DNA of 32,000 nucleotides from Nostoc sp. PCC 7120 = FACHB-418 (GCF_000009705.1 NC_003270.1:1-32000); one strand, 5' to 3'; shown: positions 3,223 through 29,509, numbered from the stretch's first letter. The notes: a model not told the origin generated them from the letters alone. Program-made: numbers and translations.

Positions 3223-3398
3223 AAGAGGTAGTGTAAAAGTAGCCACAACGACCAAGGGCATTTGTAACTGGGTGCTAGATTCAATCTCAACTATCTTCTT
3301 TGAATCAGCCTAACTTTCCTGCTTACTAGGCGCAGATAGCCTTTGTATCCCACTGATAATTTAAAATCGTTCCGGTGCGCCTGGGTTGTTGTGTCCCC

Positions 3399-3833: not shown

Positions 3834-4200
3834 ACACTTACTCAACCTTGGCAATCTGCTGGTCAAACCTCATCGTTTAGTATTCCCTTTCACATCGTAC
3901 TTACAAGCACCCAACAATCGACCTTAAAACACTGTCTCATCAACAACCTTGCGTTGCCTCAACTCTCAACAGTCATAGACCAACTTTCAGCTACTCTTTA
4001 GTGAGGACTAAAAGCCTTTAACTATAGGTCAATGATGAAATCACCCACCCAAAAGTTTAAGACTTTAAAGGACATTTTGTAGTGCTAATGTAGTTTTTTA
4101 GTAGTTAATTTTGTTGGTTGTTTTTTTTCTTTCTCAATTTAGACTTAAAAAACGGGAAAAACTTTTTTGCGTACTGTGCGGAAACTCAAATTTTTTCAAC

Positions 4201-4350
4201 TGACATGAAATTAACGTCAATTTGACTAGGATTTACCATAGTTTTACCAAGGTTTTAACATAGGTTGACTGCGGTCAAAGTTGCGCCTCCCATGAAATTG
4301 ACATGGATCTAACTAGGATTTAACGTCAATCTGACATGAAACTGCCATAG
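4201..4350. repeat. Shuffled short-repeat (iteron-like) cluster downstream of the primase-helicase gene
   Basis: 'gacatgaaa' at 4202 and 4333. 'catgaaatt' at 4204 and 4291. 'aacgtcaat[t/c]tgac' at 4213 and 4322. 'actaggattta' at 4225 and 4312. 'ccatag' at 4236 and 4345. Confidence 0.6.
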
Positions 4351-4725
4351 ATTTCACATAAAACTGGCATAGCACACTGATATGTTTTATTACGGGTTTT
4401 TCCTGTACTGAGTTGAGCAATTTATTTTCCCTAAGCGAACCAAATCGGGTTTAAATGCTCTTGTTTGTTCTAAAAAGCCAACACATCTCTGTACTGCTGT
4501 CTTGGTACAACAGCAGGCACAGTCTAGCCGTCGTCAGTTTAACCCCAAAAAGCGAGATTTTTCATCCAGAGTCTTCCACATCTCATCCGCTCAACATGAA
4601 GCTAGAGATGATGACGGTTTCATTCAGCATAGGTTGGTGAAAATTATCTCACCCAGATACGATCGCTTTTACCTTGGATCAAGCTGATGGCACTGCCCCT
4701 GAATTAATCACTCTCAGTCTCAGGT

Positions 4726-11573: not shown

Positions 11574-12113
11574 ATGTTAGTAAAACGACAACCACAGCAA
11601 ACTAACGTCAGCCCTTTTTTGTATGAAGGGCTGGCCACAACTCCACAACAACAGCAGCAAGCACAACAACCCCCACAACAAGCACTCCCGCCAGAGTCTA
11701 ACTTTGGCAGAGGCTTGAGAAGGGCGGGAAATGCCTGTGAGATTATCGCTGGCAGTTGCTTGAATAGCGGTGTTATTTTCACTTTCCACCTTCTACAAGT
11801 TCACCCTGTTGGCTTTGTGTTGGCCTTGGGAGTTTCACATTTCTACTTGTCAGCAACCGCCGCCGGGGAAGGTAAAGACCGTTTCGCTACCAATGTAATG
11901 ACTGGGGCTAGTGCTTCACTATCCTTACTATGTGCATTGTCTGAACCGATAGCCGAGTGGTATGAGGCGCAAGTTTCCAACACTATTGCCGCAGATGTGA
12001 GGCGCGAATTGTATGAACCTAAGCAAGCTCCTGACTCTGGACTCATGACCATTGGTGCGATCGCATTTGGGCTAGTGGTTCTATTTCTATTTTTTGGCGG
12101 GAGGAGAAAATGA
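11574..12113 (+). CDS. Membrane protein with a Q-rich N-terminus
   Basis: 'TPQQQQQAQQPPQQ' then about 3 hydrophobic segments (VGFVLALGVSHFYL, GASASLSLLCAL, TIGAIAFGLVVLFLFF). Its stop overlaps the next start (ATGA at 12110-12113). Confidence 0.6.
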   Translation: MLVKRQPQQTNVSPFLYEGLATTPQQQQQAQQPPQQALPPESNFGRGLRRAGNACEIIAGSCLNSGVIFTFHLLQVHPVGFVLALGVSHFYLSATAAGEGKDRFATNVMTGASASLSLLCALSEPIAEWYEAQVSNTIAADVRRELYEPKQAPDSGLMTIGAIAFGLVVLFLFFGGRRK

Positions 12114-14100: not shown

Positions 14101-14772
14101 ATGCTGAGAATAGTAATTGTTGAACCAGAAACATTCACGCTCTTAGGCTTCAAAGCGGCTATTGAACAATCTCCTGATATAGAAGTTACAGGGTCAGCCA
14201 CCAGTGGAAAGATAGGTTTTCAGTTAATTGAACAAGTAAATCCAGATGTTGTGTTAGTTGATTTACTATTACCGGACATGAGCGGTTTAGAACTCACTCG
14301 TTCAATTAAAAGAAATACTAATAGTAAAGTGGTGATTTTTACTAATGAGACTCATTCAGACTTTATTAACTCGGCTTTCCGTCATGGTGCTGATTCTTAT
14401 ATGCTCAAGAGTGCTGATGTAGAATTGATTGAACTAGCCATCAAGAGAGCTTACTTTGATGAATGTCTACTTGACCCAAAGCTGGCTAAAAAACTGTTAG
14501 AAAGCCTTTATCAAAATAGATATATTGACCCCACCTTCGTTGATAAAAACTTGATAGATCCGCCTACCGAGCGCCAAATACAAGTCCTGCGTTTACTGGC
14601 TCAGGGTTTAGTTTTTCAAGATATTGCCAAAGAAATGTTTCTGTCTGTTAGTACGGTCAAACAATATGCCAGTGATTTGTACAGTAAATGGCACGTCAAG
14701 AACCGTTATGAGGCGATAAAAAGAGGGGCGATGCTTGGTTATATCGACTATAACTTGATTGTGAATGAATGA
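14101..14772 (+). CDS. NarL/FixJ (LuxR-type HTH) response regulator, orphan
   Basis: The receiver has a phospho-acceptor context 'VVLVDLLLPDMSG', 'VVIFT' and 'YMLKS'. The C-terminal 'TERQIQVLRLLAQGLVFQDIAKEMFLSVSTVKQYASDLYSKW' is a LuxR HTH. Confidence 0.85.
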   Translation: MLRIVIVEPETFTLLGFKAAIEQSPDIEVTGSATSGKIGFQLIEQVNPDVVLVDLLLPDMSGLELTRSIKRNTNSKVVIFTNETHSDFINSAFRHGADSYMLKSADVELIELAIKRAYFDECLLDPKLAKKLLESLYQNRYIDPTFVDKNLIDPPTERQIQVLRLLAQGLVFQDIAKEMFLSVSTVKQYASDLYSKWHVKNRYEAIKRGAMLGYIDYNLIVNE

Positions 14773-14922: not shown

Positions 14923-16962
14923 ATGCCCCAGGACTTCTCCGGCCAAAATCTTCGTGGGCGCAACTTCAAAGGACAAGACCTTGCGGGTGCAAACTTTAGC
15001 TATGCCGACATTCGAGGGGCAAACTTTAGCGGTGCTAACTTGATAGGGGCAAACTTTACTCTTGCCAAAGCCGGACTGCGACGACGTTGGGTGATTGGTT
15101 TAGTTATTGTCTCGTTCTTATTGTCGAGACTGTCAGGATATCTCTGTGCTTTTAATGGTTATTTAGTGTCGCTGATATTTAGTTTGTCCACTGATAACCT
15201 GATTATCGGCTGGGTTGCTTTAATTATATTGATTCCTTTCTACTTCATAACCATTCGTCAAGGATTCACAGCTGGTTTTGGATATCTCGCCGTCGCTTTC
15301 GCCGTCGCCGTCGCCGTCGCTTTCGCCGGAGCCGGAGGCGTCGCTTTCGCCGTCGCTTTCGCTTTCGCTGGAGCCGGAGGCGTCGCTTTCGCCGTCGCCG
15401 GAGCCGGAGCCGTTGCCGTCGCCGTCGCCTTCGCCGTCGCTTTCGCCGTCGCCGGAGCCTTCGCCGGAGCCGTTGCCGTCGCCGTCGCCTTCGCTTTCGC
15501 CGTCGCCGGAGCCCTCACCTTCGCTGGAGCCTTTGCCTTCGCCAGAGCCTTCGCCGTCGCTGTCGCCGTCACCGAAATGTTACTGAGCATTTACATTGCT
15601 TGGCAAGCCATGAAAGGAAACGAAAAATATTCTCTAGTTCGCAACATTGCGATTGCCTTTGCTGCAACAGGAGGTACAAGTTTTCGTGGCGCTGACTTAA
15701 CCAGTGCTGATTTCACCCAAGCCACACTCAAAAGTACAGATTTGAGAAACACAATCCTTACTAATACCCATTGGCATCAAGCCAAAATGCTTGACCGTGT
15801 TCGCCCTGGCTCGACTTATCTTCAAAATCCACAAATACGTCAACTGCTGGTTACAGGACAGGGACAGGACAAAAACTTTGACGGTCAAATTCTGCGAGGT
15901 ATCAATTTACAAAAAGCTAACCTAGCAGATGCCAGCTTTATTGGTGCTGACCTCAGTGAAGCCAATTTGCAAGATGCCGATTTGTCAAGGGCAAAGCTAA
16001 AGCAAACCCAACTAGACGGCACAGATTTAACAGGTGCAACACTCACCGGAGCTTTCATTGAAGATTGGGGGATTACAAATACAACTAAATTGCATGGGGT
16101 GAGGTGTGAATATGTCTTCATGCGCTTACCCACTGCATATAACCCCGACCCCCTCCGCAAACCTGATAATAATAAAGAAGTGTTTGCAGACGGTGATTTT
16201 GGCGAATTTATTAAACCAATTTTTGATACACTCGACCTCTACCATAACCAAAATGTTGACCCCAGAGCGATCGCAATTTCGTTTAAGCAGTTAGCAGAAA
16301 ATCACCCGGCAGCCGAACTAGAAATTGTGGCAATGGAGAAACGGGGACAGGATAAGTTTTTACTTCGCGCTAAAACCGCAGCTAGGGCTGACAAGTCTCA
16401 ACTGAGTGCAGAATATTTTGATAGTTATAATCAGCTTAAAGGTTTACCAGAGAGAGAAATTAAATTATTGCTGGCAGAGAAAGAAAATCAAATCCGCAGA
16501 TTAGAAAATATGGTAATGACGGCACTTGAGCGTCCTAGTTTTTATTCAAACACCCAAATAGAAAAGGTAAATACAATGACTAATAATCCTGGTGGAATTT
16601 CTCAAAATGTAAGTGGCGGTAGTGTGTATGGTGGGATGCAAGCAGCACAGGGTAATAATAACGTGCAAACTTCAACCACTTATTCTTCACCAGAACAAAA
16701 ACAAAATCTTGCAGAAGCCGCAGCAGAAATTCAGCAATTACTAGAGCAATTAAGCCAGTCTTATCCTACCAATACCAACTCTGAAAAAATGGTATTTGCA
16801 ATAGAAGCCAAGAAACACGTCGAAAATAACCCAACTTTAATGAAGAAAATAATTAGTGCTTTAGAGGCAGGTAGTACGGCTGCTCTAGAACAACTTCTTA
16901 GTCATCCCGCAGCAAGTTTTGTAATTGGAGCCTTCGAGGATTTCAAAAATAACTCCAAGTAA
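14923..16962 (+). CDS. Pentapeptide-repeat membrane protein with an A/V/F/G low-complexity TM region and a C-terminal Q/N/G motif module
   Basis: Pentapeptide repeats occur at the N-terminus ('GANFSYADIRGANFSGANLIGANF') and centrally ('LRGINLQKANLADASFIGADLSEANLQDADLSRAKL'). A hydrophobic block lies at about aa 55-230. 'MTNNPGGISQNVSGGSVYGGMQAAQGNNNVQ' is encoded at nt 16576-16668. Confidence 0.85.
   Translation: MPQDFSGQNLRGRNFKGQDLAGANFSYADIRGANFSGANLIGANFTLAKAGLRRRWVIGLVIVSFLLSRLSGYLCAFNGYLVSLIFSLSTDNLIIGWVALIILIPFYFITIRQGFTAGFGYLAVAFAVAVAVAFAGAGGVAFAVAFAFAGAGGVAFAVAGAGAVAVAVAFAVAFAVAGAFAGAVAVAVAFAFAVAGALTFAGAFAFARAFAVAVAVTEMLLSIYIAWQAMKGNEKYSLVRNIAIAFAATGGTSFRGADLTSADFTQATLKSTDLRNTILTNTHWHQAKMLDRVRPGSTYLQNPQIRQLLVTGQGQDKNFDGQILRGINLQKANLADASFIGADLSEANLQDADLSRAKLKQTQLDGTDLTGATLTGAFIEDWGITNTTKLHGVRCEYVFMRLPTAYNPDPLRKPDNNKEVFADGDFGEFIKPIFDTLDLYHNQNVDPRAIAISFKQLAENHPAAELEIVAMEKRGQDKFLLRAKTAARADKSQLSAEYFDSYNQLKGLPEREIKLLLAEKENQIRRLENMVMTALERPSFYSNTQIEKVNTMTNNPGGISQNVSGGSVYGGMQAAQGNNNVQTSTTYSSPEQKQNLAEAAAEIQQLLEQLSQSYPTNTNSEKMVFAIEAKKHVENNPTLMKKIISALEAGSTAALEQLLSHPAASFVIGAFEDFKNNSK
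15289..15573. repeat. Imperfect tandem hexanucleotide-type repeat (GCCGTC/GCTTTC/GCCGGA units) inside the pentapeptide protein gene
   Basis: Encodes (A-F/V/G)n. Higher-order repeats are visible, e.g. 'ttcgc[c/t]ggagccggaggcgtcgctttcgccgtcgc' twice. Several frames on both strands are open, which explains the track ORFs 15258-15590(-) and 15278-15586(+). Confidence 0.85.
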
Positions 16963-16981
16963 ATATTAACCTCAATAGAAA

Positions 16982-17022
16982 ACACCAAACGAGTTTAGAA
17001 GAGTCTTTGCTGCGTTTGGTGT
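16982..17022 (+). terminator. Stem-loop after the pentapeptide protein gene (weak terminator candidate)
   Basis: Perfect 10-bp inverted repeat 16982-16991/17013-17022 ('acaccaaacg'/'cgtttggtgt'). The loop is long (21 nt) and there is no strong T-tract. Confidence 0.3.
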
Positions 17023-17058
17023 GAAAAATATTTGATATATTGCTATGAAATTTTTACT

Positions 17059-19092
17059 ATGGATCAGCCAAAGTCTCCTGATGATAATCAAGCATCTTCG
17101 CCTGAACCTGGTATAAGACAGGAGGCTAATAATTCAACTTTCGGTGGTGGACAGCAGGCTGCAATAGGTAATGATAATATCCAAAATCAGGGGAACAATA
17201 ACTGGCTAGGTAATACTTGGAATGTTTTTTTTGGGCAGCCGACAACCCCAGTAGGCAACCCGGCTCGACCAAAGAACGAACGGATACTATTAGCCGCAGT
17301 CAAAGAAGAAGTTACTTCCCGGTTAAGGCAGTCTCTACACAATGCTGTGCTAATTAATCTAGGGAAAGAATCACAACCCCAGCAGGTAAAACGCTTTTGG
17401 GATGCAGAGATAAAAATTGGCTTAAAGCCTGCTGAACCTCTCTCAGATACCACAACAATTTTGGAAATTTTTGACTCCCAAGAAATTGCAGGTAAGTTGC
17501 TAATTCTGGGAAATCCTGGTGCTGGGAAAACTACTACAATGCTAGATTTAGCGAAAGCTTTAATTGCACGGGCAGAACAAGATGCTGATTATCCAATTCC
17601 AGTATTGTTTAACCTCTCGGCTTGGAAGTATGATAAGCAGTCGATGCGGGATTGGTTGGTGCTGGAATTAAAGTCGAAATATGTAGTGCGTCAGGATATT
17701 GGTGCAAAGTGGTTGGATGATGTCAAGTTGTTACCAATGTTGGATGGGTTGGATGAACTAGAGTCAGCACGTCAGGAAGCTTGTGTCAATAATATTAATA
17801 AATTTGTGCAAAATGAATGGAGATCGCAGTATTTAGTGGTTTGTAGTCGCTCGGAAGAATACACAAATTATAAAATCAATCTGCAATTAAATGGAGCAAT
17901 TTTTCTACAACCACTTACAGATAAACAAATTCAGGCATATTTAACAAGGCTAAACCAACTAGAATTATGGAGAATAATACAAGTTGATACAGAGCTATTA
18001 AAGTTGCTAAGAACATCTCTATTTTTATCAATTTTAGGATTTATCTCATTGCATAAAGCTTTATCTCTTCAAGAGTGGAAAACACTTACATCAACTCAAA
18101 CACGACTGGAATACTTTTTTGGTACTTACTGGGAAACGGCAATAAGACGAGATATTGTGACTCCACAAATGGAGTCTCAGGGATTTAAAAGCCGTTCTTA
18201 TGGAAAGAAAAAACCTCCGAGTGAAAAGCAAACACGAAGGTGGTTACTGTTTTTATCACAGCAGTTACAAAAAGAATCCAGAACTGAATTTTTGATTGAA
18301 AAAATGCAATTGTCTTGGTTGATAAATAATAGAGAAAAATGGACTTATAGAATATCTTTTGGGATGCTTAGTGCCTTGATAGTTGGAATGATTTTTGGGA
18401 CATTTGGTGAACTGAATGTTGGTCTAACCTTTGGGCTGATTGGCGGACTAATTGGTGGGTTTAAGGAAATTAGATCTGTTGAATCATTTCGTTTTAATTT
18501 TACTGATAAACTAGGTAAAAATTTATTTAAAAACATAATCTATGGACTACTTACTGGACTTAGTTTTGGATTGATTGGTGCATTAATTGGTGAATTTTTT
18601 TTAAGGCTGAGTGGCAGAGGTTTGATTGCCGGGTCGTTTTTTGGCTTAATTAGTGGTGTGATTATTGGACTAATTAATGGGTTAAAAGCTGATATCCAAA
18701 CTCGAACAAAACCAAACCAAGGAATTTTGGAGTCTGCAAAGAACTCGGCTGTAATTACCCTAAGCATCCTACTCATTTTTGTTCTGATACAGGCTTTAGC
18801 TTCGCAAACTCTCAGCAACATCTTTACTCAACCTAAGTTCACTAGTCTTGTAGTTTGTTTACTGGCTGCATCAGTCTGTGGGTGTGGTTCAGCAAGTGGT
18901 GGTCAAGGTGGTATGCAGCATTTTACCCTACGCCTCGTCCTCTACTTCAACGGCTACATCCCTTGGAACTACGCCCGTTTCCTCGACTACTGCACTGAGC
19001 GATTATTCCTCCAGCGTGTAGGTGGACGCTACCGCTTCATCCACAAACTGCTGCAAGACCACTTCGCGCAAATGGAGTTCAAACGGGATTAA
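17059..19092 (+). CDS. NACHT-type STAND NTPase with an N-terminal Q/N/G motif and a C-terminal multi-pass glycine-zipper membrane domain
   Basis: First ATG at 17059 (MDQPKSPDD..; the track TTG is at 17032). Motif 'STFGGGQQAAIGNDNIQNQGNNN' at nt 17134-17202. Walker A 'LGNPGAGKTT', Walker B 'LLPMLDGLDEL', 'VVCSRSEEY'. The C-terminus has repeated 'GLxFGLIGxLIGxF' hydrophobic segments. Confidence 0.85.
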   Translation: MDQPKSPDDNQASSPEPGIRQEANNSTFGGGQQAAIGNDNIQNQGNNNWLGNTWNVFFGQPTTPVGNPARPKNERILLAAVKEEVTSRLRQSLHNAVLINLGKESQPQQVKRFWDAEIKIGLKPAEPLSDTTTILEIFDSQEIAGKLLILGNPGAGKTTTMLDLAKALIARAEQDADYPIPVLFNLSAWKYDKQSMRDWLVLELKSKYVVRQDIGAKWLDDVKLLPMLDGLDELESARQEACVNNINKFVQNEWRSQYLVVCSRSEEYTNYKINLQLNGAIFLQPLTDKQIQAYLTRLNQLELWRIIQVDTELLKLLRTSLFLSILGFISLHKALSLQEWKTLTSTQTRLEYFFGTYWETAIRRDIVTPQMESQGFKSRSYGKKKPPSEKQTRRWLLFLSQQLQKESRTEFLIEKMQLSWLINNREKWTYRISFGMLSALIVGMIFGTFGELNVGLTFGLIGGLIGGFKEIRSVESFRFNFTDKLGKNLFKNIIYGLLTGLSFGLIGALIGEFFLRLSGRGLIAGSFFGLISGVIIGLINGLKADIQTRTKPNQGILESAKNSAVITLSILLIFVLIQALASQTLSNIFTQPKFTSLVVCLLAASVCGCGSASGGQGGMQHFTLRLVLYFNGYIPWNYARFLDYCTERLFLQRVGGRYRFIHKLLQDHFAQMEFKRD

Positions 19093-19264
19093 GCAGATAC
19101 CACCAACTCACACAGGGCGATCGCCAATCCCGTCGCCTTTAAATTTATCGAAGGCTTGAGCCGTGAAAATCTGCGCTTTGATGTAGCTGATACCGTCACT
19201 GGATTTGTCTTAGTGAGCTATACTCAATTTTTATTCAAGCATCTAAGTAGACAAGATAAATATA

Positions 19265-19699
19265 ATGACTAATAATCCTGGTGGAATTTCCCAAAATGTA
19301 AGCGGTGGTAATGTGTACGGTGGTATGCAAGCGGCGCAGGGCGACAAAAACCAGCAAACAATGGAGACCAATGTAGTCGCATCTGGTGAAAAACAGCTAA
19401 CTCAGGAAGATGTAATTCGGATGTTAGCGCAGATAGAACAATTAGTAGGTGCAAACCCAGAACTACCAGAAGCAGTTAAAGAAAAGTCACTCAAATATCT
19501 AGGAGCCGCTAAAGAAGAAGCTCAAGTTCCTGAACCTGATAAACAGTTGGCATCTGGGAATCTCAAACGGATGGCAGAAACACTGAAAACTACAAGCGAA
19601 ACTGTAGCATCAACTAAAAACCTTTGGGAGAATGTTAAACCAATTTTGTTGGAACTACCCGGCTGGCTAGGTGTTGCTAAAAGTTTCTTTGGATTTTAG
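19265..19699 (+). CDS. Small helical protein carrying the Q/N/G motif at its N-terminus; a paralogue of the pentapeptide protein's C-terminal module
   Basis: 'MTNNPGGISQNVSGGNVYGGMQAAQGDKNQQ' at nt 19265-19357. It is 88% identical at nucleotide level to 16576-16653. The C-terminal tail is hydrophobic ('ILLELPGWLGVAKSFFGF'). Confidence 0.75.
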   Translation: MTNNPGGISQNVSGGNVYGGMQAAQGDKNQQTMETNVVASGEKQLTQEDVIRMLAQIEQLVGANPELPEAVKEKSLKYLGAAKEEAQVPEPDKQLASGNLKRMAETLKTTSETVASTKNLWENVKPILLELPGWLGVAKSFFGF

Positions 19700-19711
19700 T
19701 AAGACAAATCT

Positions 19712-20689
19712 ATGAATCAGCCGCCTTTATCTGACTCTACCTCAAACCAGCCTCTTCAGAATACCCTTCAGCAGAATGCGGAAAGCTCGACACTGGGAGG
19801 AGGTATTCAAGGTACTCAGGGTAATAACAATATCCAGATTCAGGGATCAGAAAATCAGGTTAACAATATTAACTTGACACTGGTTTTAAATGAAAAAACA
19901 ATTGAACAAACAAAAAATAGTGAACAACCAATTATTACTGAATCTGGGTTAGTTATTGAATCATCAGGAAGTTGGGTTTTATTACAAGGTTACTTCTTTC
20001 AAACAGAAACTGTTCGCCAGCATCAAGATGGCACATTAACTGTAATGATTCCGTCTGAGAGTTCCCAAGACGATGCAACAATTCAATCACTTCGTCCTGA
20101 CCGTTGGGGACAGTCACAGCTAACTACATTCGCTTATCGAAATGATGGTTTTCTTGTCAAGGTTGAGGAGATAGAAGCAGAATCTAGAAGGGACTCTTAT
20201 ATATGGAAACTCACTCTCAAGCCAGCAAACATCGAGTATGGTGGTAGTACTTTTGAAATGTCATATCAAGAACGCGACCAAACCTACTCAGCCGATGACA
20301 TTGCTAATTTGAGAGGAAGACGGATATTACTGAACGATCCGCCCAAGCAGGTCATAGATGCTAAGTTTTACAGGCCTGCTTCGGCAAACAATCAAATGCT
20401 TGAGACGTTAATTAGAGGTATTAATACCCCCATTCAAGTTGAAAATTGTGTGCTGCAACCTCTATACTCTGTTTACAAGGATAGACCAAAGCTTTTTCTT
20501 GAACTGGCACGACTGATGGCTATTTTTTCTCTGAAAGCTGGCGATGTTGTTGAGCAAGTACTGGAATTGGCATTAGGGCCAATTGAACAAGCCAGCGTTC
20601 ATGTAAGATTTCGAGGTAGAAGACGGAAGAAGTATGTTAATGTCGAGCCATCTATCATTGAAATAGAAGGTGATTGTCCTCTTGAATAA
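19712..20689 (+). CDS. Protein of unknown function with an N-terminal Q/N/G motif
   Basis: 'MNQPPLSD..' then 'STLGGGIQGTQGNNNIQIQG' at nt 19787-19846. The ~260-aa remainder matches no family I recognise. It starts 13 nt after the previous stop. Confidence 0.75.
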   Translation: MNQPPLSDSTSNQPLQNTLQQNAESSTLGGGIQGTQGNNNIQIQGSENQVNNINLTLVLNEKTIEQTKNSEQPIITESGLVIESSGSWVLLQGYFFQTETVRQHQDGTLTVMIPSESSQDDATIQSLRPDRWGQSQLTTFAYRNDGFLVKVEEIEAESRRDSYIWKLTLKPANIEYGGSTFEMSYQERDQTYSADDIANLRGRRILLNDPPKQVIDAKFYRPASANNQMLETLIRGINTPIQVENCVLQPLYSVYKDRPKLFLELARLMAIFSLKAGDVVEQVLELALGPIEQASVHVRFRGRRRKKYVNVEPSIIEIEGDCPLE

Positions 20690-20872
20690 CTGGGGGATAA
20701 AATATTAGGCATATTCTCTACTCTGTCGCAGAATAACCATGCACAATCTCGCAGGTTTTTTGCGCGACATGGCTCTATTAAATGCCATGCTTATCGTAAT
20801 AAAGATATTTTCTGTTGATAATTACAACTTGTGATTAAAATTACTAATATGTCCAGCTATTAACTTATTTGG

Positions 20873-23800
20873 ATGTCGCAGATTTACAAATGGAAAAGGT
20901 TTTGGTATCCAAGGTCAGGTAGGATTAATCTGACAGGCTTTGGTTATTTATATGACCCAGATACAGACTTTGGACATTACCTAAATCCAGATTTAGTAAC
21001 ATTTAATGCAATAGCTCATTTACCCTGTTTGGCACTTCTAGGAGAACCAGGAATTGGTAAGAGCTTTGCTATTGAGGCAGAGCAAAAAATAATCGATGCC
21101 AAAATCAAAGAAGAAGGTTCCCAGATACTCAGGTTAAACCTTCGTGAATACAGCAGCGAAGACAGATTAGTCCGCAGGTTTTTTGAAAGTCCAACTTTTA
21201 ATGCTTGGATACAGGGTCAGCATCGGCTTTATGTTTTTCTTGACAGTTTAGACGAGTGTCTATTGAGAATTAACACTCTGGCTGCACTATTAGTAGGCGA
21301 GTTATCAAATTACTCAAACCACGTAGAACGCTTATATCTTCGCATTACCTGTAGAACTGCTGATTGGCCTAATAGTCTTGAACAAGGGCTGAAAAAAATT
21401 TGGGGAAAAGAGGCTGTAGGAGTTTACGAGTTAGCTCCCTTGCTTCGGGTAGACATTGCCTCGGCTGCACAAACAAAGGGTTTAGACGAGAACAACTTTC
21501 TTCAAGCTATTGAAGAACAAGAAGTTGTGCCATTGGCTATCAAGCCAATTACACTAAAATTTTTACTAAACACATACTGCAACAACGGTAGCCTACCCAC
21601 CCAGCAAACAGAACTATATTTAAAAGGTTGCCAATTGCTATGTGAAGACACCGAAGATCGCCGTGATGCTCGGCTCACTGGCAACTTTACTGCTGACCAA
21701 AGAATGGTTGTTGCCGCTCGTATTGCCGCCGTAACAGTTTTCTGCAATCGATATGCTGTATGGATGGACATAGACCAAGGTGAAGTTCCCCCAGAAGATG
21801 TTGTGATTCGGGAGCTAGTTGGAGGAATAGAATTTATTCAGGGAGACGAATTTTCTGTAACCAAAGATGCTGTTAGAGAAGTATTGTCTACAGCATTATT
21901 TTCTTCTCGCGGATGTCATCGTATGGGGTGGGCGCACCAGACTTATGCTGAGTTTCTTGCTGCTTGGTATTTGCAACACCGTCAATTAACCTTAGAGCAA
22001 ATGATGAGCTTAATAGTTCATCCAGGCGACCCTGATGGCAAATTGATTCCCCAACTTCAGGAAACAGCAGTTTGGTTATCAAGTATAAATCAAAAAGTTT
22101 TTCAGGAGGTAATGAAGACAAACCCAGACATTTTATTAAACAGCAGCGTAGCCACTGCTGACGATACAGTTAAAGCAAATTTAGTTGAGTCATTGCTAAA
22201 ACTTTATGACGAAGGAAAGTTGTTGTATGAACCCAGATATGGGGCGTATATACACTTGAAACATCAAAACTTAGCGGCTCAACTTCAATCATATATTTAT
22301 GATGCCAGTAAGAACGAAACCGCACGATATGTGGCAATCGAAATTGCACAACAGTGTGAAGAAAAATCGCTTCAAGGAGACCTAGTTAGTATTGCCCTTG
22401 CCCCTGAACAACCTTATTGGGTTAGGGTAAATGCCGCAGATACAATTTGTCTTATTGGTGATGAAGAAACTAAAGCAAGATTAAAACCATTAGCTACTGG
22501 TAAAGCGGGGGATGATACTGAAAATGAACTCAAGGGCTATGGTCTTCGTGCTGTTTGGCCGAATCATATAACAGCAGCAGAGTTATTCAATATTCTTATA
22601 CAGCCTACAAACAAGGCTACTGGTGGAACATATCAAAATTTTGTTGCCAAAGATATTGGACGACAAATACAGTTGGATGATTTGGCAATAGCTTTGAAGT
22701 GGGTTGAACAGCAACCTCTAAGACGCGATTTATGTTACCCATTTAATGAACTGGCAGATACCATACTGCTAAAAGCTTGGGAACATCTTGATGTTCCAGA
22801 TATACTCAAAGCTTTTGCAAATATAGTTTATTATAGGCTCAAAAATCATGACCAAATTACAGATAACCGTATATATAATGAAAACGAATCTTCTTGTGAA
22901 GAGCTACTAATACAAGATGACAATAAACGTCGTCAAATTTTAGAAACAATAGTTACTAGATTTTCTCAATCAGAAGCAGAAAGAATAGGAGTTTTAAGTT
23001 ACAACTTTCCAGGAATAAACCAAGATTTCCTGTGGATTTTAGAAAAACTCAAAGAATCATCATCCGAAGCTAATCAGCTAGCATGGGCAAAGTTAATCTG
23101 GCGACTATTCAAGAGATATGACCCAGAACAAGTAAATGCAATACTTACAATTAGCGAAGATATTCCCATACTAAAAGCAGAATTTTCAAAATTGATTGAA
23201 CCAATAAAATTAACTTCTCAAACAGCAATAGAAGAAAGAGCAAATTACTTAGAAGACCTGAAACAGCAGGAGCGTAATAATAATCAACAACTTTTAGACC
23301 CACCTCCCAAAGACCGAATTATCAAATGTTTAGACCAATTTGAATCTGGAAATCTTAATTCCTGGACGCAGATATGTCATGATATAACACTTATACCCAA
23401 TAGCATATACTATGACAAGATGCTATTGTTTAAACCAAATATAACAACGCTTCCTGGTTGGGAGGAAGCAGAATCATTAACAAAAACAAGAATTATAGGA
23501 GCTGCAAAAGTATATATACGTAAAGGAGACCCTATAACGTCGCAATGGCTAGGAACCAGTAAGTTTTATTACTCTACATTAGCTGGTTACAAAGCACTAT
23601 GCTTAATTTTACAAGAAGAACCAGAGTATATATATGCTATTCCTGATGGTGTTTGGAAAAAGTGGACGGCAGTTATACTCGATTATCCCAAAACAGGTAA
23701 TCCAAAAGATGAAGAAATTCGTCAAGAATTGGTGAAAAATACTTACAAAGTCGCTCCAGATGAAGTTATCAATACCCTCATTATTTTGATTGACAAAGAA

Positions 23801-24781
23801 AATCAGGATAACGGTTCTATTTCAATTCACCATGCACTAGAAAAATGCTGGGATAAACGCTTGGCAAGTACCGTTTTTAGTAAAGTAAAAAATCATCAGT
23901 TAAAGCATGAAAATTTAAGTAATTTACTTGAGGCACTCATAAGCCACAACTTTGATGAAGCCAAAACTTTTGCTGAATCATTAATTTCTTTACCCATTCC
24001 TGAAGATGCTGAGGAAAGAGCCAAAGTACTTGCCGCAGCAACAGCTCTTATGAGATATGCAAAAGATGCAGGCTGGTCAGTTGTTTGGGATGTGATTCAC
24101 CACGACCCAGAATTTGGTAGAGAATTAATTGAAGCTGTATCTTACTCTTTTGAATACACAGATAGTTTAGAGCAGAGACTAAAAGAAGAATATATAGCAG
24201 ATTTATACATTTTTCTTGTTCAGGAATATCCTCCTATTGAAAAAAGTAAGCAAGACGATTCTCAAGCAGAAGAACTCACGGGCATAGAAGCCTACAGAAT
24301 AAGACCAAAAGATGCTGTCACCACCTGGAGAAACAATATTCCACAGCGTCTCAAAAACCGTGGTACACCTGAAGCTTGTGAGGCTATTCGGCGAATCATG
24401 CGCGAACTACCAGACCAAAAGGATAAATTGGAGCGGTTTTTATTAGAAGCTGAGACTTTAACTCTCCGTAATACCTGGATTTCACCGCAACCATCAATAA
24501 TAATTGAACTAGCAAAAAGTAGTTACTCTAAAGAGGTACAGTCTTTAGTCAACTATGGAATCATACAAAATTTTCAAGACAGCACTGTTCACGGCAGCGT
24601 GCAGGCATTACAAGGTAATCATAACCAACAAAGTATTGAGAATGCAAATGTAGTTTCTCAGGAGAACCTGGCTAATACTCCAGTTCAAAAACATATATTA
24701 TGTACTAATTGCGGTCATGTAAATCCAAATAGTTGTAAGTTTTGCTCCCAATGTGGGCAAAAAATAATATCACAAATTTGA
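20873..24781 (+). CDS. Large STAND-like P-loop NTPase with a HEAT/ARM-like helical region, a C-terminal Q/N/G motif and a zinc ribbon
   Basis: Walker A 'LLGEPGIGKSF', Walker B 'LYVFLDSLDEC', 'RITCRTADWP'. HEAT-like 'VRVNAADTICLIGDEE'. Motif 'STVHGSVQALQGNHNQQ' at nt 24581-24631. Terminal 'CTNCGHVNPNSCKFCSQCGQ'. Confidence 0.85.
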   Translation: MSQIYKWKRFWYPRSGRINLTGFGYLYDPDTDFGHYLNPDLVTFNAIAHLPCLALLGEPGIGKSFAIEAEQKIIDAKIKEEGSQILRLNLREYSSEDRLVRRFFESPTFNAWIQGQHRLYVFLDSLDECLLRINTLAALLVGELSNYSNHVERLYLRITCRTADWPNSLEQGLKKIWGKEAVGVYELAPLLRVDIASAAQTKGLDENNFLQAIEEQEVVPLAIKPITLKFLLNTYCNNGSLPTQQTELYLKGCQLLCEDTEDRRDARLTGNFTADQRMVVAARIAAVTVFCNRYAVWMDIDQGEVPPEDVVIRELVGGIEFIQGDEFSVTKDAVREVLSTALFSSRGCHRMGWAHQTYAEFLAAWYLQHRQLTLEQMMSLIVHPGDPDGKLIPQLQETAVWLSSINQKVFQEVMKTNPDILLNSSVATADDTVKANLVESLLKLYDEGKLLYEPRYGAYIHLKHQNLAAQLQSYIYDASKNETARYVAIEIAQQCEEKSLQGDLVSIALAPEQPYWVRVNAADTICLIGDEETKARLKPLATGKAGDDTENELKGYGLRAVWPNHITAAELFNILIQPTNKATGGTYQNFVAKDIGRQIQLDDLAIALKWVEQQPLRRDLCYPFNELADTILLKAWEHLDVPDILKAFANIVYYRLKNHDQITDNRIYNENESSCEELLIQDDNKRRQILETIVTRFSQSEAERIGVLSYNFPGINQDFLWILEKLKESSSEANQLAWAKLIWRLFKRYDPEQVNAILTISEDIPILKAEFSKLIEPIKLTSQTAIEERANYLEDLKQQERNNNQQLLDPPPKDRIIKCLDQFESGNLNSWTQICHDITLIPNSIYYDKMLLFKPNITTLPGWEEAESLTKTRIIGAAKVYIRKGDPITSQWLGTSKFYYSTLAGYKALCLILQEEPEYIYAIPDGVWKKWTAVILDYPKTGNPKDEEIRQELVKNTYKVAPDEVINTLIILIDKENQDNGSISIHHALEKCWDKRLASTVFSKVKNHQLKHENLSNLLEALISHNFDEAKTFAESLISLPIPEDAEERAKVLAAATALMRYAKDAGWSVVWDVIHHDPEFGRELIEAVSYSFEYTDSLEQRLKEEYIADLYIFLVQEYPPIEKSKQDDSQAEELTGIEAYRIRPKDAVTTWRNNIPQRLKNRGTPEACEAIRRIMRELPDQKDKLERFLLEAETLTLRNTWISPQPSIIIELAKSSYSKEVQSLVNYGIIQNFQDSTVHGSVQALQGNHNQQSIENANVVSQENLANTPVQKHILCTNCGHVNPNSCKFCSQCGQKIISQI

Positions 24782-24867
24782 GACGTAAACAATAACTTCA
24801 TTTATAATTTTTAACTTTGATTCAAGGGATTATTTACTATTATAAAATTTACTTTCTTACTTTTATA

Positions 24868-25887
24868 TCACTCGGAATCCTTCAACATCCCCGTTAACAA
24901 TTCCGACATTTCCCACAGGTCTTTATTCCGGTTATCATCATAAATCATCAACGTTCTGGGGTCAGCATGACGGCTCAACTTCTGCACCTTTCTAATATTC
25001 CCATCCGTCGCATCAAGTGCTGCCGTAATCGCCGAATGCCTCACCCTGTGAGGTGACATCGGTTTCTTTACCCCCACCTTCTTAAAAGCACTAGCCACTA
25101 TTTTATAGATAGCATCCGTAGTCAATCTATGCCCAGAGTTATGAAAATCTAATGCTGTAAAAATTGGTAAATCGGGTTTCAAATCCCCTCGTGCAATCAA
25201 CCAATCAGCTATCGCCGCCGCCACATCTTTTGACATATCTAAATATTCTTCATTCGTTCCCTTCCCCTTACCCAAAACTCGCAACTTGCGCCCATAAAAA
25301 TCAAAGTCACCCACATTTAACTGACATATCTCCTGACGACGCAAAGCTAAACCCCACAGCACCAGAAAGATGGCATAATTGCGTTTACCAATCAAAGTCT
25401 CCCTGTCAAACTGCCCAAGTACAAGTGCTATCGTCTTGCTATCAACCCCCCGCGTATCTCGATATGCCTTGACCTTCTCCCCTTCGACATCTTCCAGGGA
25501 ATAATTGCACACCCCCAACTTCCGCCCCATCTTCGCCAAAGACTTAATCGCCGCCAACCGCCGATTAATTGTTGCTTCCCGCACCCCCGAAGCTATCAAT
25601 TTCGCCTTATACTTCAGCACCACCATCACCGCTTGCTCGCGCTGCAAGTGCAGAAACTCCAGCACACTATCCCCAGTTGGCGGCATTAGAGTCATCTTCA
25701 TAAAGAAATCCCGCAAATCTTTCTCGTAAGCCCGCCGAGTATTGGGGTTGCGCTTATCTGCCAACAGTTGCGCCAACACATCCGGGTCGCCCTGAAGCTC
25801 TGCGTCAAAATACCTAGTGATTGGCGCATCTAGACACGCTTCTAACTCTACCTTGACTAATTCCCCCCAAACCGGCTCGTTAGGCAT
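24868..25887 (-). CDS. Tyrosine recombinase (XerC/XerD / phage-integrase family)
   Basis: Catalytic signature pieces are present: 'GLALRRQEI' (Arg), 'HRVRHSAIT' (H-x-x-R), 'SRHADPRTLMIYDD' (His..Tyr). An N-terminal SAM-like core-binding region is present ('RRAYEKDLRDF'). Confidence 0.85.
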   Translation of the reverse strand: MPNEPVWGELVKVELEACLDAPITRYFDAELQGDPDVLAQLLADKRNPNTRRAYEKDLRDFFMKMTLMPPTGDSVLEFLHLQREQAVMVVLKYKAKLIASGVREATINRRLAAIKSLAKMGRKLGVCNYSLEDVEGEKVKAYRDTRGVDSKTIALVLGQFDRETLIGKRNYAIFLVLWGLALRRQEICQLNVGDFDFYGRKLRVLGKGKGTNEEYLDMSKDVAAAIADWLIARGDLKPDLPIFTALDFHNSGHRLTTDAIYKIVASAFKKVGVKKPMSPHRVRHSAITAALDATDGNIRKVQKLSRHADPRTLMIYDDNRNKDLWEMSELLTGMLKDSE

Positions 25888-26333
25888 AATTGCTCACTAC
25901 TGCGTTATTGATAATACAGATTTCCAATAACGTTCATCATACTCCGCTAAGGGAGTGCATTAATCTTTACATTCACTTCGGAGTAAAATATTTCTTGCGG
26001 AAGTTGGCAGGTGTTAATTAGTTATGTTAAGTCTGTAATTTCCGGCTGAGATATCAAAATTGATAGCTAAAAGTGGGGGATGTGGTGCAGATGTCTTTGA
26101 GGTAAGCCAGTTTATCAAATATCCGACTTGCCCATGCCCAGCAAATGAATGAGCTATGGTTGAGTTTAAAGTTTTTAATTTTAGATAATTAATCACATCA
26201 CATTGATGTATTCTGAGCTAAAATTTCTCTTTTTTTATTTGAGGTTATTTTCAACCCAAGAGCAAAATAAAGTAGCTCCGATGAGCGCAAAAATTTAATG
26301 AATAATGGCTAGTTTTATTCTTAATAAAAAATA

Positions 26334-29264
26334 TTAAAGGCCACAATTTTCTATACGAGATAGAAATCGAGTTATGTCTGATAGTCTCCTAGCGGTGGGC
26401 GTAGTATGAAACAGATATGAAAACCCCCAAGGAAAAATTGGGTAAGAAGGAAGATGTCCTTCTGGTGCATCCATATTGTAAATTAACTCATTTTGATATA
26501 ACCATCGTGTTTTTTTACGCCAGCCAATATATTCGCCAAATTTTTCCCATATTTTCTGACTATAATTATTAGTTCCACCTAATCTTTTATAAATGTCCTT
26601 TTGAACTTTGAACCCAAAATGACCCTTACTAGCGTATATCCATAGGTCATTAATAATTCTAATATCCTCACAGGGAAAATACTTAATATATTTAGTGTCT
26701 AAAAATTTTTCTTCTAACTGCCCGCTTATTTGAAGTATTAATCTCGCTGTTTCTTCATCAGCTTTTTTCCATTCAAAATTTAAAAGATAATAAAATAGTT
26801 GAGTATATTTATCTGGCAATACAACATTTAATATATGAATCCCAGTTTCAGATAATGTTTCATCATCATTAAAATCATATTGTTTCTTTTCATATTCTGT
26901 TAATAATCTATAATAGTTGGCAAATTCTTTTATATTTAACTGGGCATTAATATTTTGTGTTTTACTCCATGTTGTCAGCCAAGCACAAAATCTATTTGCG
27001 ATTTGCCAACTTATTCCATTAACGGGTTTTTGGGAATCTCCAGGTAAGAATCTATTACCATGCCAATTTTCAGGATATAAAGCATTACCTGTTTCTTCAA
27101 TAAATAACTGATATTCAACGCAAGTAATATAACTATTATCAATTTGTTTTTTTTCATCAATACGAACTAGTCTACCTAATCGCCTCGCCAACTTTACTTG
27201 TGCTGCTAATTTTAAAATTTCTATATCAGATGATTCTAAACCATCATCCAAAGTTTTAATCAGTCTTTCTCTTATAATTGGAGCCACTTTTAAACTTTCC
27301 TCCTGACAATCTAGTGCAAGTTTTAAAGACATTAAATCTAAATTACTTAAAGCTGTAGAAATTATATTAGTTGCATCAGTTTGGGCAGCATAAAGTCTAA
27401 TAGTTTCGTGCCACCAATCATCTTTTAATTTATTAATTAATATATGTTCTTGTTTACTTTCTTTTATTTGAACTGCTGCTAAGTATTCTTGGAAACTTTT
27501 ATGAGCAAATTCATAAATATTTTTTTCTTTTTCTACAAGTAATCCACAGACATCCTCAACATTTTTTATAAAATCTTCTGGTGATAATTTATTACCAGCT
27601 ACTTGTGATAAAACATCTTGGATAACTGAACTACCTAACATTAAATCAAACTCACGAGTATTTTGATTCATTAAAAATAATGCTAAAACTTGAAGTACTA
27701 CTTTCTTCTGATCAGATGTTAGTAAATCAGCAATTCCTTTAGAATCTTGTCGCCTACCCAACATAACATCACAAATTTCAGCATACAATTCTACTCTTCT
27801 TCCTGGTAAAGCACCACGATAACAATGAACTGTAGCAATCATAGTTAATAACAGTGGATTTAAAGCCATTGCCGCTAAAGATGAATTATTTTTTATACGT
27901 TCAATTAGATCATCGGATTTTCGGTTAGCATTCTGTTGTATACCTTGATCTTTTTGCCCATGCCGACTCATAATTTCATTTTGAAGATACCAATTTTGGA
28001 TAAAAAATTGCACCTGCTTTGAGTTAAATGGATGTATTTCTAAAATTGCCTTAATGTTTTCCACAGGGGCGCTACGATAACCAAAAGGGCGAGAGGTTAG
28101 TAAAAAAATAGCATGAGGATATTCTTGAATTTGCTTGTTTACCCATCTACTAATTAATTGGCGTTGATGAAGCTCTACTTCATCTAATCCATCGAACATT
28201 ACTAAACATTTCTGAGTTTTATAATTTCTAGTTGTTAAATTTATATTTAATCTCAAATTATCTTCAAACCAACTTTTTAATGGCTGATTTTTTTTTACTA
28301 ATTCTTGTTGTTCAATTAAAGTTGGTAAATCAGGTTGCTCTTCAATAATTGAGTTTTGAATCTCCCGTAAATAAAGTATTATGGGAATTAATTCAGGCGC
28401 TTTAGCATTATGCTGAAAATATGTATTGTTAGCATAATTTAAAACCAAGTATTCCAACAAAGTTGTTTTACCATATCCTGGAGGAGCGATGATTGCTATA
28501 CTACGAAAAGCATGGAACTCCTGACTTGCTATTAACCAATCCCATATCTCTGTTGGATTAGATCCATATTTAAGATGAATCATACCGTTAGGTATTCTAT
28601 CAACACATTCTGGTGCAAGCCTGAGTGCTACAAATACCTTTTCTAGATCCAAAGTAAAAGGGCCTTTAGTTTTCAATCCTTGAGTCCGATAATCACGGCA
28701 ATTATAAATTAATTCATCATAATACCTTTTTTTAAATTTTCTTGATTCTTCCTCCCAAGAATATGGTGTTTTTATAGCATTTGCTTCTTGGAATGTATTT
28801 AATTGTTTATATCTTTCATGATTTTTCCATTTCAAAATAATATCTATTAGTAAAATTAATAAAGCAATTAGAAAATACAAATCTTGTGATAATAGCCATT
28901 TCCAAATAATATTTATTATCCATTTAAATAATTGGTTTAGCAAAGTCAAATCAATATTTGTATTTTTGAAACGTTCATGAATTGCTATCGCCAGAAATGC
29001 TGTTAAAAAAAAGAGCGGTAGTAAAGGTAATACTCGTTTAAATTCTTTTATGAAAAAACTTTCAGTGATTTCTGTTTCTTTATACGGATTAATAGAAATA
29101 TTTACATTATTTCCCGACGAAGTATTATTAGACTGATTTTGAAAATTTTTATTTCCTTTAATAGCCTGCATTCCATTATCTAAAGTAGAAGTATCAACTT
29201 GTTGTTGAATATCAATATCCTGTTTAGATGGTTGATTAGGTTCTGGATTTAGCGGCTGATTCAT
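26334..29264 (-). CDS. NACHT-type STAND NTPase with an N-terminal Q/N/G motif, TM helices, a partial FGE-sulfatase-like segment and a C-terminal GUN4 domain
   Basis: First ATG at 29264 (MNQPLNPEP..; the track TTG is at 29300). Motif 'STLDNGMQAIKGNKNFQNQ' at nt 29133-29189. Hydrophobic 'VLPLLPLFFLTAFLAIAI' and 'LYFLIALLILLIDIIL'. Walker A 'APPGYGKTT', Walker B 'LVMFDGLDEV', 'LLTSRP'. FGE-like 'VEYQLFIEETG..PVNGISWQIANRFCAWL' at ~26960-27130. GUN4-like 'WKKADEETARLILQISG..FPCEDIRIINDLWIYASKGHFGFKVQKDIY' at ~26500-26785. Confidence 0.85.
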   Translation of the reverse strand: MNQPLNPEPNQPSKQDIDIQQQVDTSTLDNGMQAIKGNKNFQNQSNNTSSGNNVNISINPYKETEITESFFIKEFKRVLPLLPLFFLTAFLAIAIHERFKNTNIDLTLLNQLFKWIINIIWKWLLSQDLYFLIALLILLIDIILKWKNHERYKQLNTFQEANAIKTPYSWEEESRKFKKRYYDELIYNCRDYRTQGLKTKGPFTLDLEKVFVALRLAPECVDRIPNGMIHLKYGSNPTEIWDWLIASQEFHAFRSIAIIAPPGYGKTTLLEYLVLNYANNTYFQHNAKAPELIPIILYLREIQNSIIEEQPDLPTLIEQQELVKKNQPLKSWFEDNLRLNINLTTRNYKTQKCLVMFDGLDEVELHQRQLISRWVNKQIQEYPHAIFLLTSRPFGYRSAPVENIKAILEIHPFNSKQVQFFIQNWYLQNEIMSRHGQKDQGIQQNANRKSDDLIERIKNNSSLAAMALNPLLLTMIATVHCYRGALPGRRVELYAEICDVMLGRRQDSKGIADLLTSDQKKVVLQVLALFLMNQNTREFDLMLGSSVIQDVLSQVAGNKLSPEDFIKNVEDVCGLLVEKEKNIYEFAHKSFQEYLAAVQIKESKQEHILINKLKDDWWHETIRLYAAQTDATNIISTALSNLDLMSLKLALDCQEESLKVAPIIRERLIKTLDDGLESSDIEILKLAAQVKLARRLGRLVRIDEKKQIDNSYITCVEYQLFIEETGNALYPENWHGNRFLPGDSQKPVNGISWQIANRFCAWLTTWSKTQNINAQLNIKEFANYYRLLTEYEKKQYDFNDDETLSETGIHILNVVLPDKYTQLFYYLLNFEWKKADEETARLILQISGQLEEKFLDTKYIKYFPCEDIRIINDLWIYASKGHFGFKVQKDIYKRLGGTNNYSQKIWEKFGEYIGWRKKTRWLYQNELIYNMDAPEGHLPSYPIFPWGFSYLFHTTPTARRLSDITRFLSRIENCGL

Positions 29265-29509
29265 AAAAAAATAATTATTAATAATTAATTTACTTTTCAA
29301 ATTCTTAGTTTTCTAAAGAATACCGTTGAAGAAATTAGACTTAGAAACCCTATGGCATAGTTAATTACAAGATTTAATTCAAAACTTTATATAAAATATA
29401 CCATAAAAAATACGTGTTATAAAGCTTTTAAGCGTTTGATTTCCTTGGAGCAAGCTAGTGTTTAGAGGTGAGTTACCTTCTTAGGGGTAAATATAGCGAA
29501 GACACTGTT

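Follow-up and report, generated by a model that had tools for sequence, protein, structure and literature searches.

A shared motif in six genes of the window

The stretch of DNA analyzed here comprises 32,000 nucleotides (nt) of Nostoc sp. PCC 7120 = FACHB-418 (GCF_000009705.1 NC_003270.1:1-32000; hereafter the window) and contains six genes whose products share one short peptide motif. The products are a pentapeptide-repeat protein with multiple transmembrane (TM) segments, an NTPase of the NACHT-TM type, a 144-amino-acid (aa) protein, a 325-aa protein, a 1302-aa NACHT-type NTPase, and a NACHT-GUN4 protein (Table 1). All six open reading frames (ORFs) had been listed in an earlier reading made from the sequence alone (the sequence-only reading), and all are present as described. 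The 144-aa and 325-aa proteins have no family match in Pfam or NCBIfam.

The pattern Q[AG]..G[ND].N.Q has exactly six matches in the six-frame translation of the 32 kb, one in each of the six ORFs. The number of chance matches is 0.0006 per set when the residues of the six proteins are shuffled, and 0.0032 when shuffling is limited to 25 residues on either side of the motif. The proposal of a motif shared by six proteins is thus borne out, and the conserved region is longer than noted: the copies align in a gapless 24-residue block, [IL]xQx[VAF]xx[SG]x[VFL]xx[GS]xQ[AG]xxG[ND]xNxQ, here called class A, with Q3, Q15, G19, N22, and Q24 invariant in the six copies. The S-T-[LFV] prefix of four copies, the M-[ND]-Q-P start of three proteins, and the N-h-N-h stretches (h, hydrophobic) listed in the same reading are all present in the sequences. 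In the three proteins with the M-[ND]-Q-P start (NACHT-TM, 325-aa, and NACHT-GUN4), the motif begins at residue 19. In the pentapeptide protein it is internal, beginning at residue 559 of 679 and lying 97 aa ahead of the C-terminal end.

The composition of the block, rich in glycine, asparagine, and glutamine with alternating hydrophobic residues, fits the pattern of bacterial amyloid signaling sequences (BASS). AlphaFold2 (AF2) monomer models give the motif regions as disordered, as would be expected for such tags in the resting state. About half of the positions with the same amino acid in different copies have different codons, and the only close pair of copies is that of the pentapeptide and 144-aa genes, with 81% nucleotide identity. 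Because the codons differ, the likeness of the copies does not result from recent homogenization of DNA, and the peptide has been kept by selection.

Table 1. Coordinates of the motif-bearing genes, the motif copies, and other features of the window
Feature	Position	Strand	Details
Pentapeptide-repeat/multi-TM protein, 679 aa	14923..16962	+	ORF; Pfam Pentapeptide 7.6e-32
NACHT-TM NTPase, 677 aa	17059..19092	+	ATG at 17059; Pfam NACHT
144-aa protein	19265..19699	+	N-terminal motif and 'type B' four-helix bundle
325-aa protein	19712..20689	+	ATG at 19712; N-terminal motif and conserved unnamed ~245-aa domain 'X'
1302-aa NACHT-type NTPase, distantly EruA/HyoA-like	20873..24781	+	Tail consists of motif and zinc ribbon
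NACHT-GUN4 protein, 976 aa	26334..29264	-	ATG at 29264; Pfam GUN4 1.9e-31, NACHT 1.2e-9
Motif copy 1, ISQNVSGGSVYGGMQAAQGNNNVQ	16597..16668	+	Pentapeptide protein; 'GGIS' subtype, putative partner side
Motif copy 2, IRQEANNSTFGGGQQAAIGNDNIQ	17113..17184	+	NACHT-TM N-terminus, from residue 19; putative NLR-side subtype
Motif copy 3, ISQNVSGGNVYGGMQAAQGDKNQQ	19286..19357	+	144-aa protein, from residue 8
Motif copy 4, LQQNAESSTLGGGIQGTQGNNNIQ	19766..19837	+	325-aa protein, from residue 19
Motif copy 5, IIQNFQDSTVHGSVQALQGNHNQQ	24560..24631	+	1302-aa NTPase, from residue 1230 of 1302
Motif copy 6, IQQQVDTSTLDNGMQAIKGNKNFQ	29139..29210	-	NACHT-GUN4, from residue 19
Zinc-ribbon-like CxxC...CxxC tail behind motif copy 5	24701..24766	+	Pfam Zn_Ribbon_1 3.4e-4, under curated cutoff
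LuxR/NarL-type response regulator	14101..14772	+	Pfam and NCBIfam
AAA-type ATPase	12110-13876		Weak HerA, TcpF, and AAA_10 matches; gene and family searches
XerC/D-like tyrosine recombinase	24868-25887	-	Between the plus-strand operon and NACHT-GUN4

Motif classes and their matching in adjacent genes

Among 1.84 billion representative proteins, 54 protein clusters matched a profile of the six window copies (E <= 1e-3). In most of them the motif starts near residue 20, and in the others it lies about 107-136 residues ahead of the C-terminal end. The matching proteins share the leader M-x-Q-P… followed by GIxQQxENS[ST]hxGGMQAxQG[DN]xNIQxQG. Full-length carriers include NACHT proteins, a NACHT protein with an S26 peptidase domain, NB-ARC-TPR, nSTAND1-WD40 (twice), CHASE2, a caspase+CHAT protein with a C-terminal copy, and pentapeptide proteins; one match (P0183) looks spurious. 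A word-indexed database search with an 18-sequence motif alignment yielded 8 candidates, all of them short fragments. The profile matches are position-specific and are found on the N-termini of STAND proteins and NOD-like receptors (NLRs) and in neighboring genes, rather than being scattered over Q/N-rich proteins, so the suggested association of the motif with STAND NTPases and their neighbors is upheld.

The strongest evidence comes from the NACHT-TM orthologs. A scan of one genome per species gave 73 further loci, from which the N-termini and the upstream ORFs were extracted. In about 60 loci the ortholog carries one of at least five interchangeable N-terminal motif classes: class A (GGxQAAxGNxNxQ), which is the class of the window; class B, which consists of octapeptide repeats (NRAVQGDNNQAVLGDGN); class C (NINTGGGNYNERIEGDYIQGN); class D (NAQFGGGFINAENVNAGRIGGDIWN); and class E (YxNYGRDQINIE). 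A search of the window for other motif classes found none. Of 63 adjacent pairs, 59 have a NACHT N-terminus and an upstream protein of one and the same class. The four exceptions are technical: two were missed by the regex, in one the ORF is cut off at a contig end, and in one the upstream gene is another NACHT gene. Pentapeptide proteins ending in a caspase/CHAT-like domain are exceptions only at first sight, as they carry class D directly ahead of that domain; the two genes of class D pairs are adjacent, 3-19 nt apart. The mean Smith-Waterman score is 81.9 for cognate versus 43.7 for non-cognate combinations (permutation p < 1e-4) and 29.7 +/- 7.6 with shuffled N-termini; the window pair scores 62. 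A neighbor-joining tree of the NACHT core shows an interleaving of the classes, which requires at least 22 parsimony (Fitch) changes on 58 tips. Thus, the tag has been exchanged often, with the neighbors matching throughout.

Some genomes contain several such genes. In Nostoc sp. UCD121 (locus L018), a single contig bears a tandem of two class B NACHT-TM paralogs, and multiple paralogous pairs of different classes per genome are seen at L034, L048, L056, and, in Dendronalium, at L032, L073, and L076.

The idea of a multi-gene network, raised in the sequence-only reading, is strengthened by the recurrence of islands of a single class at three loci. At locus L008, class A is found in five or six genes, which encode a STAND-kinase-pentapeptide protein, a CHAT protein carrying a type B module, an X-domain protein, a 253-aa helical protein, and a divergent nSTAND1-WD40 protein; class D is present there on two proteins. 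Four class A genes are found at L012. Locus L090, reached through its class C X-domain protein, contains six consecutive class C genes (positions 755-5933; GNYNE[RS]I..DY[IV]QGN), which include TIR-GUN4, GUN4, and X-domain proteins and a protein composed of the tag and a type A module. In addition, arrays of several classes occur in single pentapeptide proteins: A+B+C at L066, A+C at L056, and D+B+C at L022, with tandem B+D and A+D also among L050 and L008. This composition suggests that the multi-class proteins are hubs addressable through several channels.

Architecture and context of the motif-bearing proteins

The pentapeptide protein has a hydrophobic region at residues 56-227, and its motif is followed by a helical module, type A. 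Plasmids of Nostocales conserve it as the partner encoded upstream of NACHT-TM; the two genes are collinear, with an intergenic gap of 9-99 nt (96 nt in the window). Assignment of its middle domain to bacterial TRADD-N was rejected, since Pfam lends it no support and the published architecture is a different one. Identification of the type A module as EAD1 was likewise rejected, as only one of ten members gave a weak match (E 0.028-0.11), and a profile search of PDB with this module matched designed armadillo-repeat proteins only. The gene also contains a hexanucleotide tandem repeat at 15287-15574 (period 6, about 48 copies, with periods 42 and 54 too). The repeat encodes a hydrophobic (A-V/A-F/A-G)n stretch of about 130 residues, has a local GC content of up to 0.51, and yields long spurious ORFs (15258-15590 on the minus strand and 15278-15586 on the plus strand).

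The 144-aa gene is homologous to the pentapeptide coding sequence, and the homology extends about 36 nt 5' of its ATG (19229-19264 versus 16540-16575, …FYS…), where it is broken by a stop codon. Since the homology runs upstream of the ATG across a stop codon, the 144-aa gene goes back to a 3' cassette that belonged to a pentapeptide gene. At many loci, full-length pentapeptide genes retain the methionine of M-T-N-N-P-G-G internally, and as an internal start it could free a product consisting of the tag and the module. In the 144-aa family itself, which is stand-alone, conserved, and represented by 44 clusters from Fischerella, Nostoc, Iphinoe, Rivularia, Halotia, and others, the tag is more conserved than the linker behind it. 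Among the variants are P0128, with A+B tags in tandem, and P0143, in which a stand-alone tag is joined to a type A module. In the AF2 model of the window protein, residues 1-41 are disordered and residues 45-144 form a four-helix bundle with a predicted local distance difference test score (pLDDT) >90. The protein matches the PADLOC candidate PDC-M14B (2.2e-6); identification of the bundle with Bell, HeLo, or Bab domains was rejected, since there is no structural match.

In Iphinoe (L086) and Nostocales LEGE 11386 (L012), a homolog of the 144-aa protein is encoded 12 nt upstream of a STAND NTPase with a class A N-terminus. By sequence, this is a minimal two-gene module, canonical save for the N-terminal position of the tag in the small protein. 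The layout of the island is accordingly less unusual than had been claimed, the pentapeptide and NACHT-TM genes being a conserved collinear pair with the partner preceding the NLR, and the 144-aa homologs standing directly upstream of motif-bearing STAND genes.

On the other side, NACHT-TM consists of the N-terminal motif, NACHT, a hypervariable multi-TM region (hydrophobic segments at residues 431-615), and a conserved C-terminal part of about 60 aa. In an alignment of eight proteins, the first ~60 residues are hypervariable and the core is highly conserved. The multi-TM region (alignment columns ~440-880) is rich in glycine zippers of the GxxxG type, is as variable in length and sequence as the N-terminal tag while lying between nearly invariant flanks, and occupies the position of the sensor repeats in usual NLRs. 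NACHT-GUN4 comprises the N-terminal motif, two hydrophobic segments (residues 75-149), NACHT, an FGE-sulfatase-like region, and GUN4. In PADLOC, the GUN4 part (26334-26900) is matched (1.6e-31) by the model of PD-T4-6, an antiphage protein encoded by a single gene. No homolog of NACHT-GUN4 closer than about 25% identity was found in plasmids.

The X domain (19952-20689, residues ~80-325) is modeled by AF2 with pLDDT >90. It has no match in Pfam, NCBIfam, or PADLOC, and Foldseek found no significant match in PDB (best TM-score 0.22, with weak matches to baseplate/Hcp-like barrels). Its 94 homologs occur in cyanobacteria and planctomycetes (e.g., Lignipirellula and Paludisphaera), and their N-terminal slot holds an adenylate cyclase, TIR, caspase, PNP, DUF4062, or wHTH domain or, alternatively, a short tag of class A (P0002-P0005) or class C (eight clusters). 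One cyclase-X gene stands alone amid unrelated genes, which suggests that X serves in sensing or regulation and that the output part sits at the N-terminus.

The 1302-aa NTPase matches the NCBIfam family EruA (NF058535) with 1e-55 and 189.6 bits, versus a curated equivalog cutoff of 1000 bits. As the score is far under the cutoff, the protein was not accepted as EruA proper and is only a distant relative. We found no relevant paper on EruA/HyoA, and a Nature 2026 STAND survey does not contain these names; in the literature examined, 'EruA' denotes an unrelated E. coli regulator. The core of the protein (residues 4-1224) is common to proteins of Dolichospermum, Bradyrhizobium, Rhizobium, and Bacillus, and the homologs align nowhere beyond it. 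In place of the tag and zinc ribbon, the Dolichospermum homolog (L084, 8541-9227) has a C-terminal domain of about 190 aa with a PD-(D/E)xK-like DIHVD…IIEVK signature and no Pfam match. To judge by these domain arrangements, in both the X-domain and the 1302-aa families the tag stands in for an output domain in cis, which is the hallmark logic of adaptor-type motifs.

The window resembles the backbones of 35-80 kb Nostoc and Tolypothrix plasmids. At L001, L003, L004, and L007 the genes follow one order: ParM, an ATPase gene, a LuxR-type response regulator, the pentapeptide protein, NACHT-TM, and, usually, a tyrosine recombinase. Only at L004 does the ATPase gene bear the annotation of a type IV coupling protein. 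The AAA-type ATPase of the window takes the place corresponding to the ATPase gene of these relatives. At least the pentapeptide/NACHT-TM pair is kept at L005 and L006. By gene order, the response regulator would belong to the syntenic context of this pair only, and it may control the operon. The GC content is 0.30-0.32 over 26-30 kb versus 0.37-0.48 elsewhere; because of this low GC content and the intervening recombinase, the NACHT-GUN4 segment may be a separate acquisition.

Class A as a candidate partner-recognition tag

The closest parallel is provided by the families BASS1-10, which occur in filamentous cyanobacteria and in which a G/N/Q-rich motif of about 20-25 aa stands on the N-terminus of a NACHT or NB-ARC protein and on the product of an adjacent collinear gene, and several motif families are interchangeable in one slot and match within a pair. 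BASS families form amyloids and prions experimentally, and non-Bell partners (CHAT, TIR, and cyclase) are reported for them (Dyrka et al. 2020, bioRxiv 10.1101/2020.01.06.895854). Two connections to published BASS were observed. One is class E, which is the published BASS8 and, at L055 and L074, is accompanied by a Bell-like upstream protein; among the NACHT-TM orthologs, a Bell-like partner was found in this class only. The Stenomitos ortholog (L055) starts with MTRQYRNDGRDQIPIENVHGNVYIQEG, and the upstream 142-aa protein, which has a hydrophobic N-terminal helix, ends in …YTNYGRDQINIETIQGNPKIGGS, so that the pair closely matches the BASS8 pairs in Table S2 of Dyrka et al. The other is the NB-ARC-TPR protein P0157, where class A is directly followed by QKIFENIRAGGNITVGDIKQ, matching BASS4 examples. 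Beyond the BASS layout, class A is also found on non-NTPase sensors (X domain and CHASE2) and at the C-terminal end of an NTPase, a single class is shared by up to six genes, and some hub proteins carry tandem arrays of several classes.

The motif is, by the measure of these sequence comparisons, functional rather than compositional. Most probably, though with considerable room for doubt, class A acts as a homotypic tag by which partners of one class recognize each other, and it belongs functionally with BASS. This role is proposed because the two sides co-vary at the level of classes, because BASS8 is used by NACHT-TM orthologs with a Bell-like partner, and because class A and a BASS4-like sequence stand in tandem. 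Two forms of the tag would be distinguished. The NLR-side form, with the M-[ND]-Q-P leader, the motif from residue ~19, and an N/hydrophobic stretch, would occupy the slot that otherwise holds an effector domain; in the window it would be carried by NACHT-TM, NACHT-GUN4, and the X-domain protein, while the EruA-like NTPase would use a C-terminal slot. The partner-side 'GGIS' form would precede a small helical module in the pentapeptide/TM protein and the 144-aa bundle. Accordingly named, the candidate sensors are these four proteins and the candidate partners are the latter two. An activated sensor would oligomerize, and its clustered tags would take a beta-rich fold, which in turn would recruit or template the partner tags of the same class and so switch the partners on. 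Sharing of one class by six genes would let several sensors act on common partners. We infer the binding of tag to tag, the amyloid-like fold, the direction of signaling, and a role in phage or plasmid conflicts.

Several observations weigh against this interpretation. No match was found between class A and the example sequences of BASS1 and BASS3-10, and the words GGMQA, QAAIG, and MQAA are absent from the searched parts of the supplementary tables of Dyrka et al. Identification of class A with BASS3/RHIM was rejected: hhalign gives 5% probability over 8 columns, covering G[DN]xNxQ only, and the spacing Q-A-A-x-G or I-Q-x-Q-G differs from [IV]-Q-[IV]-G, so that the RHIM/PP likeness suggested earlier is not supported. 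The partners in the window are a pentapeptide/TM protein and a four-helix bundle, unlike the Bell/HeLo-like partners of BASS, and the motif on the partner side, instead of being C-terminal, lies internally or at the N-terminus, ahead of a helical module. For the 144-aa bundle, Foldseek found no significant neighbor in PDB, only generic four-helix bundles. The protein has no strongly hydrophobic helix and no segment at the Kyte-Doolittle transmembrane threshold, which leaves its earlier description as membrane-active-looking weakly founded. In NCBIfam and PADLOC, no known defense system was found above curated thresholds for five of the six window proteins. Finally, pair-specific co-evolution inside a class was not seen, as cognate pairs resemble each other no more than other pairs of their class and rank roughly as expected from class size, and the motif-coding regions of a pair are only ~0.5 kb apart, so that joint switching of class could be a single cassette exchange. 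Such an exchange would not, however, by itself account for the likeness of the two sides in every class.

The main rival explanation is that the motif is a homotypic docking tag which constitutively assembles a stoichiometric hetero-oligomer, for example by beta-strand addition, with neither prion-like templating nor amyloid. Class-specific matching fits docking equally well, and a partner-side tag that precedes folded helical modules and leaves no free terminal tail, unlike the canonical BASS and HET-s layouts, speaks in its favor. However, docking fits poorly with the use of BASS8 by NACHT-TM orthologs, with the fusion of class A to a BASS4-like sequence in the NB-ARC-TPR protein, with the amyloid and prion nature of BASS families in experiments (Dyrka 2020), and with a G/N/Q-rich composition, alternating hydrophobics, and a length of ~24 aa, all typical of BASS motifs. 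We therefore regard docking as rather unlikely, if well worth keeping in sight.

Far smaller weight is given to the idea that one outside factor (for example, a protease, a chaperone, a sorting machinery, or a modifying enzyme) recognizes the tag on all six proteins, which would then be co-regulated or co-localized. The tag often stands beside caspase/CHAT domains, and the fixed leader of about 18 residues in the N-terminal form resembles sorting and processing signals, but this leader lacks the hydrophobic character of a signal peptide. Moreover, no third gene co-occurs consistently, minimal modules consist of two genes, class D pairs are directly adjacent (3-19 nt), and five classes would need five matching recognition factors, all of which makes this explanation improbable. 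The most strongly disfavored explanation, to which we give hardly any credence, denies the motif a function at the protein level and attributes it to Q/N/G-rich linker composition or to a hitch-hiking, recombining DNA cassette. It could appeal to the low complexity and modeled disorder of the regions, to the origin of the 144-aa gene from the pentapeptide 3' cassette, and to the tyrosine recombinase within the island. It is contradicted by position-specific conservation far above the compositional expectation, by the codon differences between copies, by strict motif positions in unrelated families from many genera, and by matching in five independent classes.

If class A is the proposed partner-recognition tag, it joins a wider set of adaptor systems. 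Bab/Agp of E. coli, with the motif BASS11, is a demonstrated antiphage defense with a non-NLR sensor (Ibarlosa et al. 2024, bioRxiv 10.1101/2024.11.07.622273); non-Bell partners, too, are reported in that study. As in the window, adjacent genes share a short motif and the sensor need not be an NLR. In contrast, Bab/Agp is a single sensor-effector pair whose pore-forming effector Babybell has a C-terminal motif, and class A is set beside BASS11 by description only. In the fungal HET-s/HRAM, sigma, and PP systems and the metazoan RHIM, a short motif of similar composition and length replaces the N-terminal effector domain of an NLR and activates a separately encoded effector. The G-[DN]-x-N-x-Q core recalls BASS3/RHIM, but the spacing in class A differs from I/V-Q-I/V-G, and relatedness is unsupported. 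A similar organization is seen for the effector-associated domains (EADs) and Death-like adaptors of bacterial conflict systems, which are enriched in multicellular cyanobacteria and where the same adaptor, sometimes several per protein, is found on a sensor or NTPase and on an adjacent product (Kaur, Burroughs, Iyer, Aravind 2020/2021, PMC7159879, PMC8195603), but EADs are folded helical domains of ~90 aa, whereas class A is an unstructured 24-aa tag.

The concept of such signaling is thus known. In the literature examined we did not find the class A and B-D tags or the pentapeptide/TM and helical-module partners, nor did we find a tag on non-NTPase sensors or on an NTPase C-terminus, multi-class arrays, or many-gene islands of one class; these would appear to be new. 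Tentatively, we suggest as a possible generalization that filamentous cyanobacteria address their proteins by a combinatorial code. The undescribed classes, at least four in number (A-D), would together with the published BASS be orthogonal channels through which varied sensors plug into shared partners and hubs, and islands of four to six genes of one class, often plasmid-borne, would be self-contained many-to-many networks of immunity or incompatibility. The sensors in such a code would include NACHT-TM, NB-ARC-TPR, nSTAND1-WD40, GUN4, CHASE2, and non-NTPase X-domain proteins, and pentapeptide/TM hubs with two or three classes would integrate several channels. Tags of the same class would then interact and those of different classes would not, and a swap of the tag on both partners would keep the function.

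In summary, the analysis annotates a conserved, uncharacterized module in the plasmid backbones of Nostocales, together with a 245-aa domain that is widespread and unnamed. If the proposed reading is true, signaling by short motifs of bacterial NLRs is broader than one Bell effector serving one NLR, and includes new motif families, non-NTPase sensors, and partners such as pentapeptide/TM proteins, small helical modules, and caspase-like domains. The wiring within one island would be many-to-many, and thus nearer to the supramolecular signaling hubs of eukaryotes.

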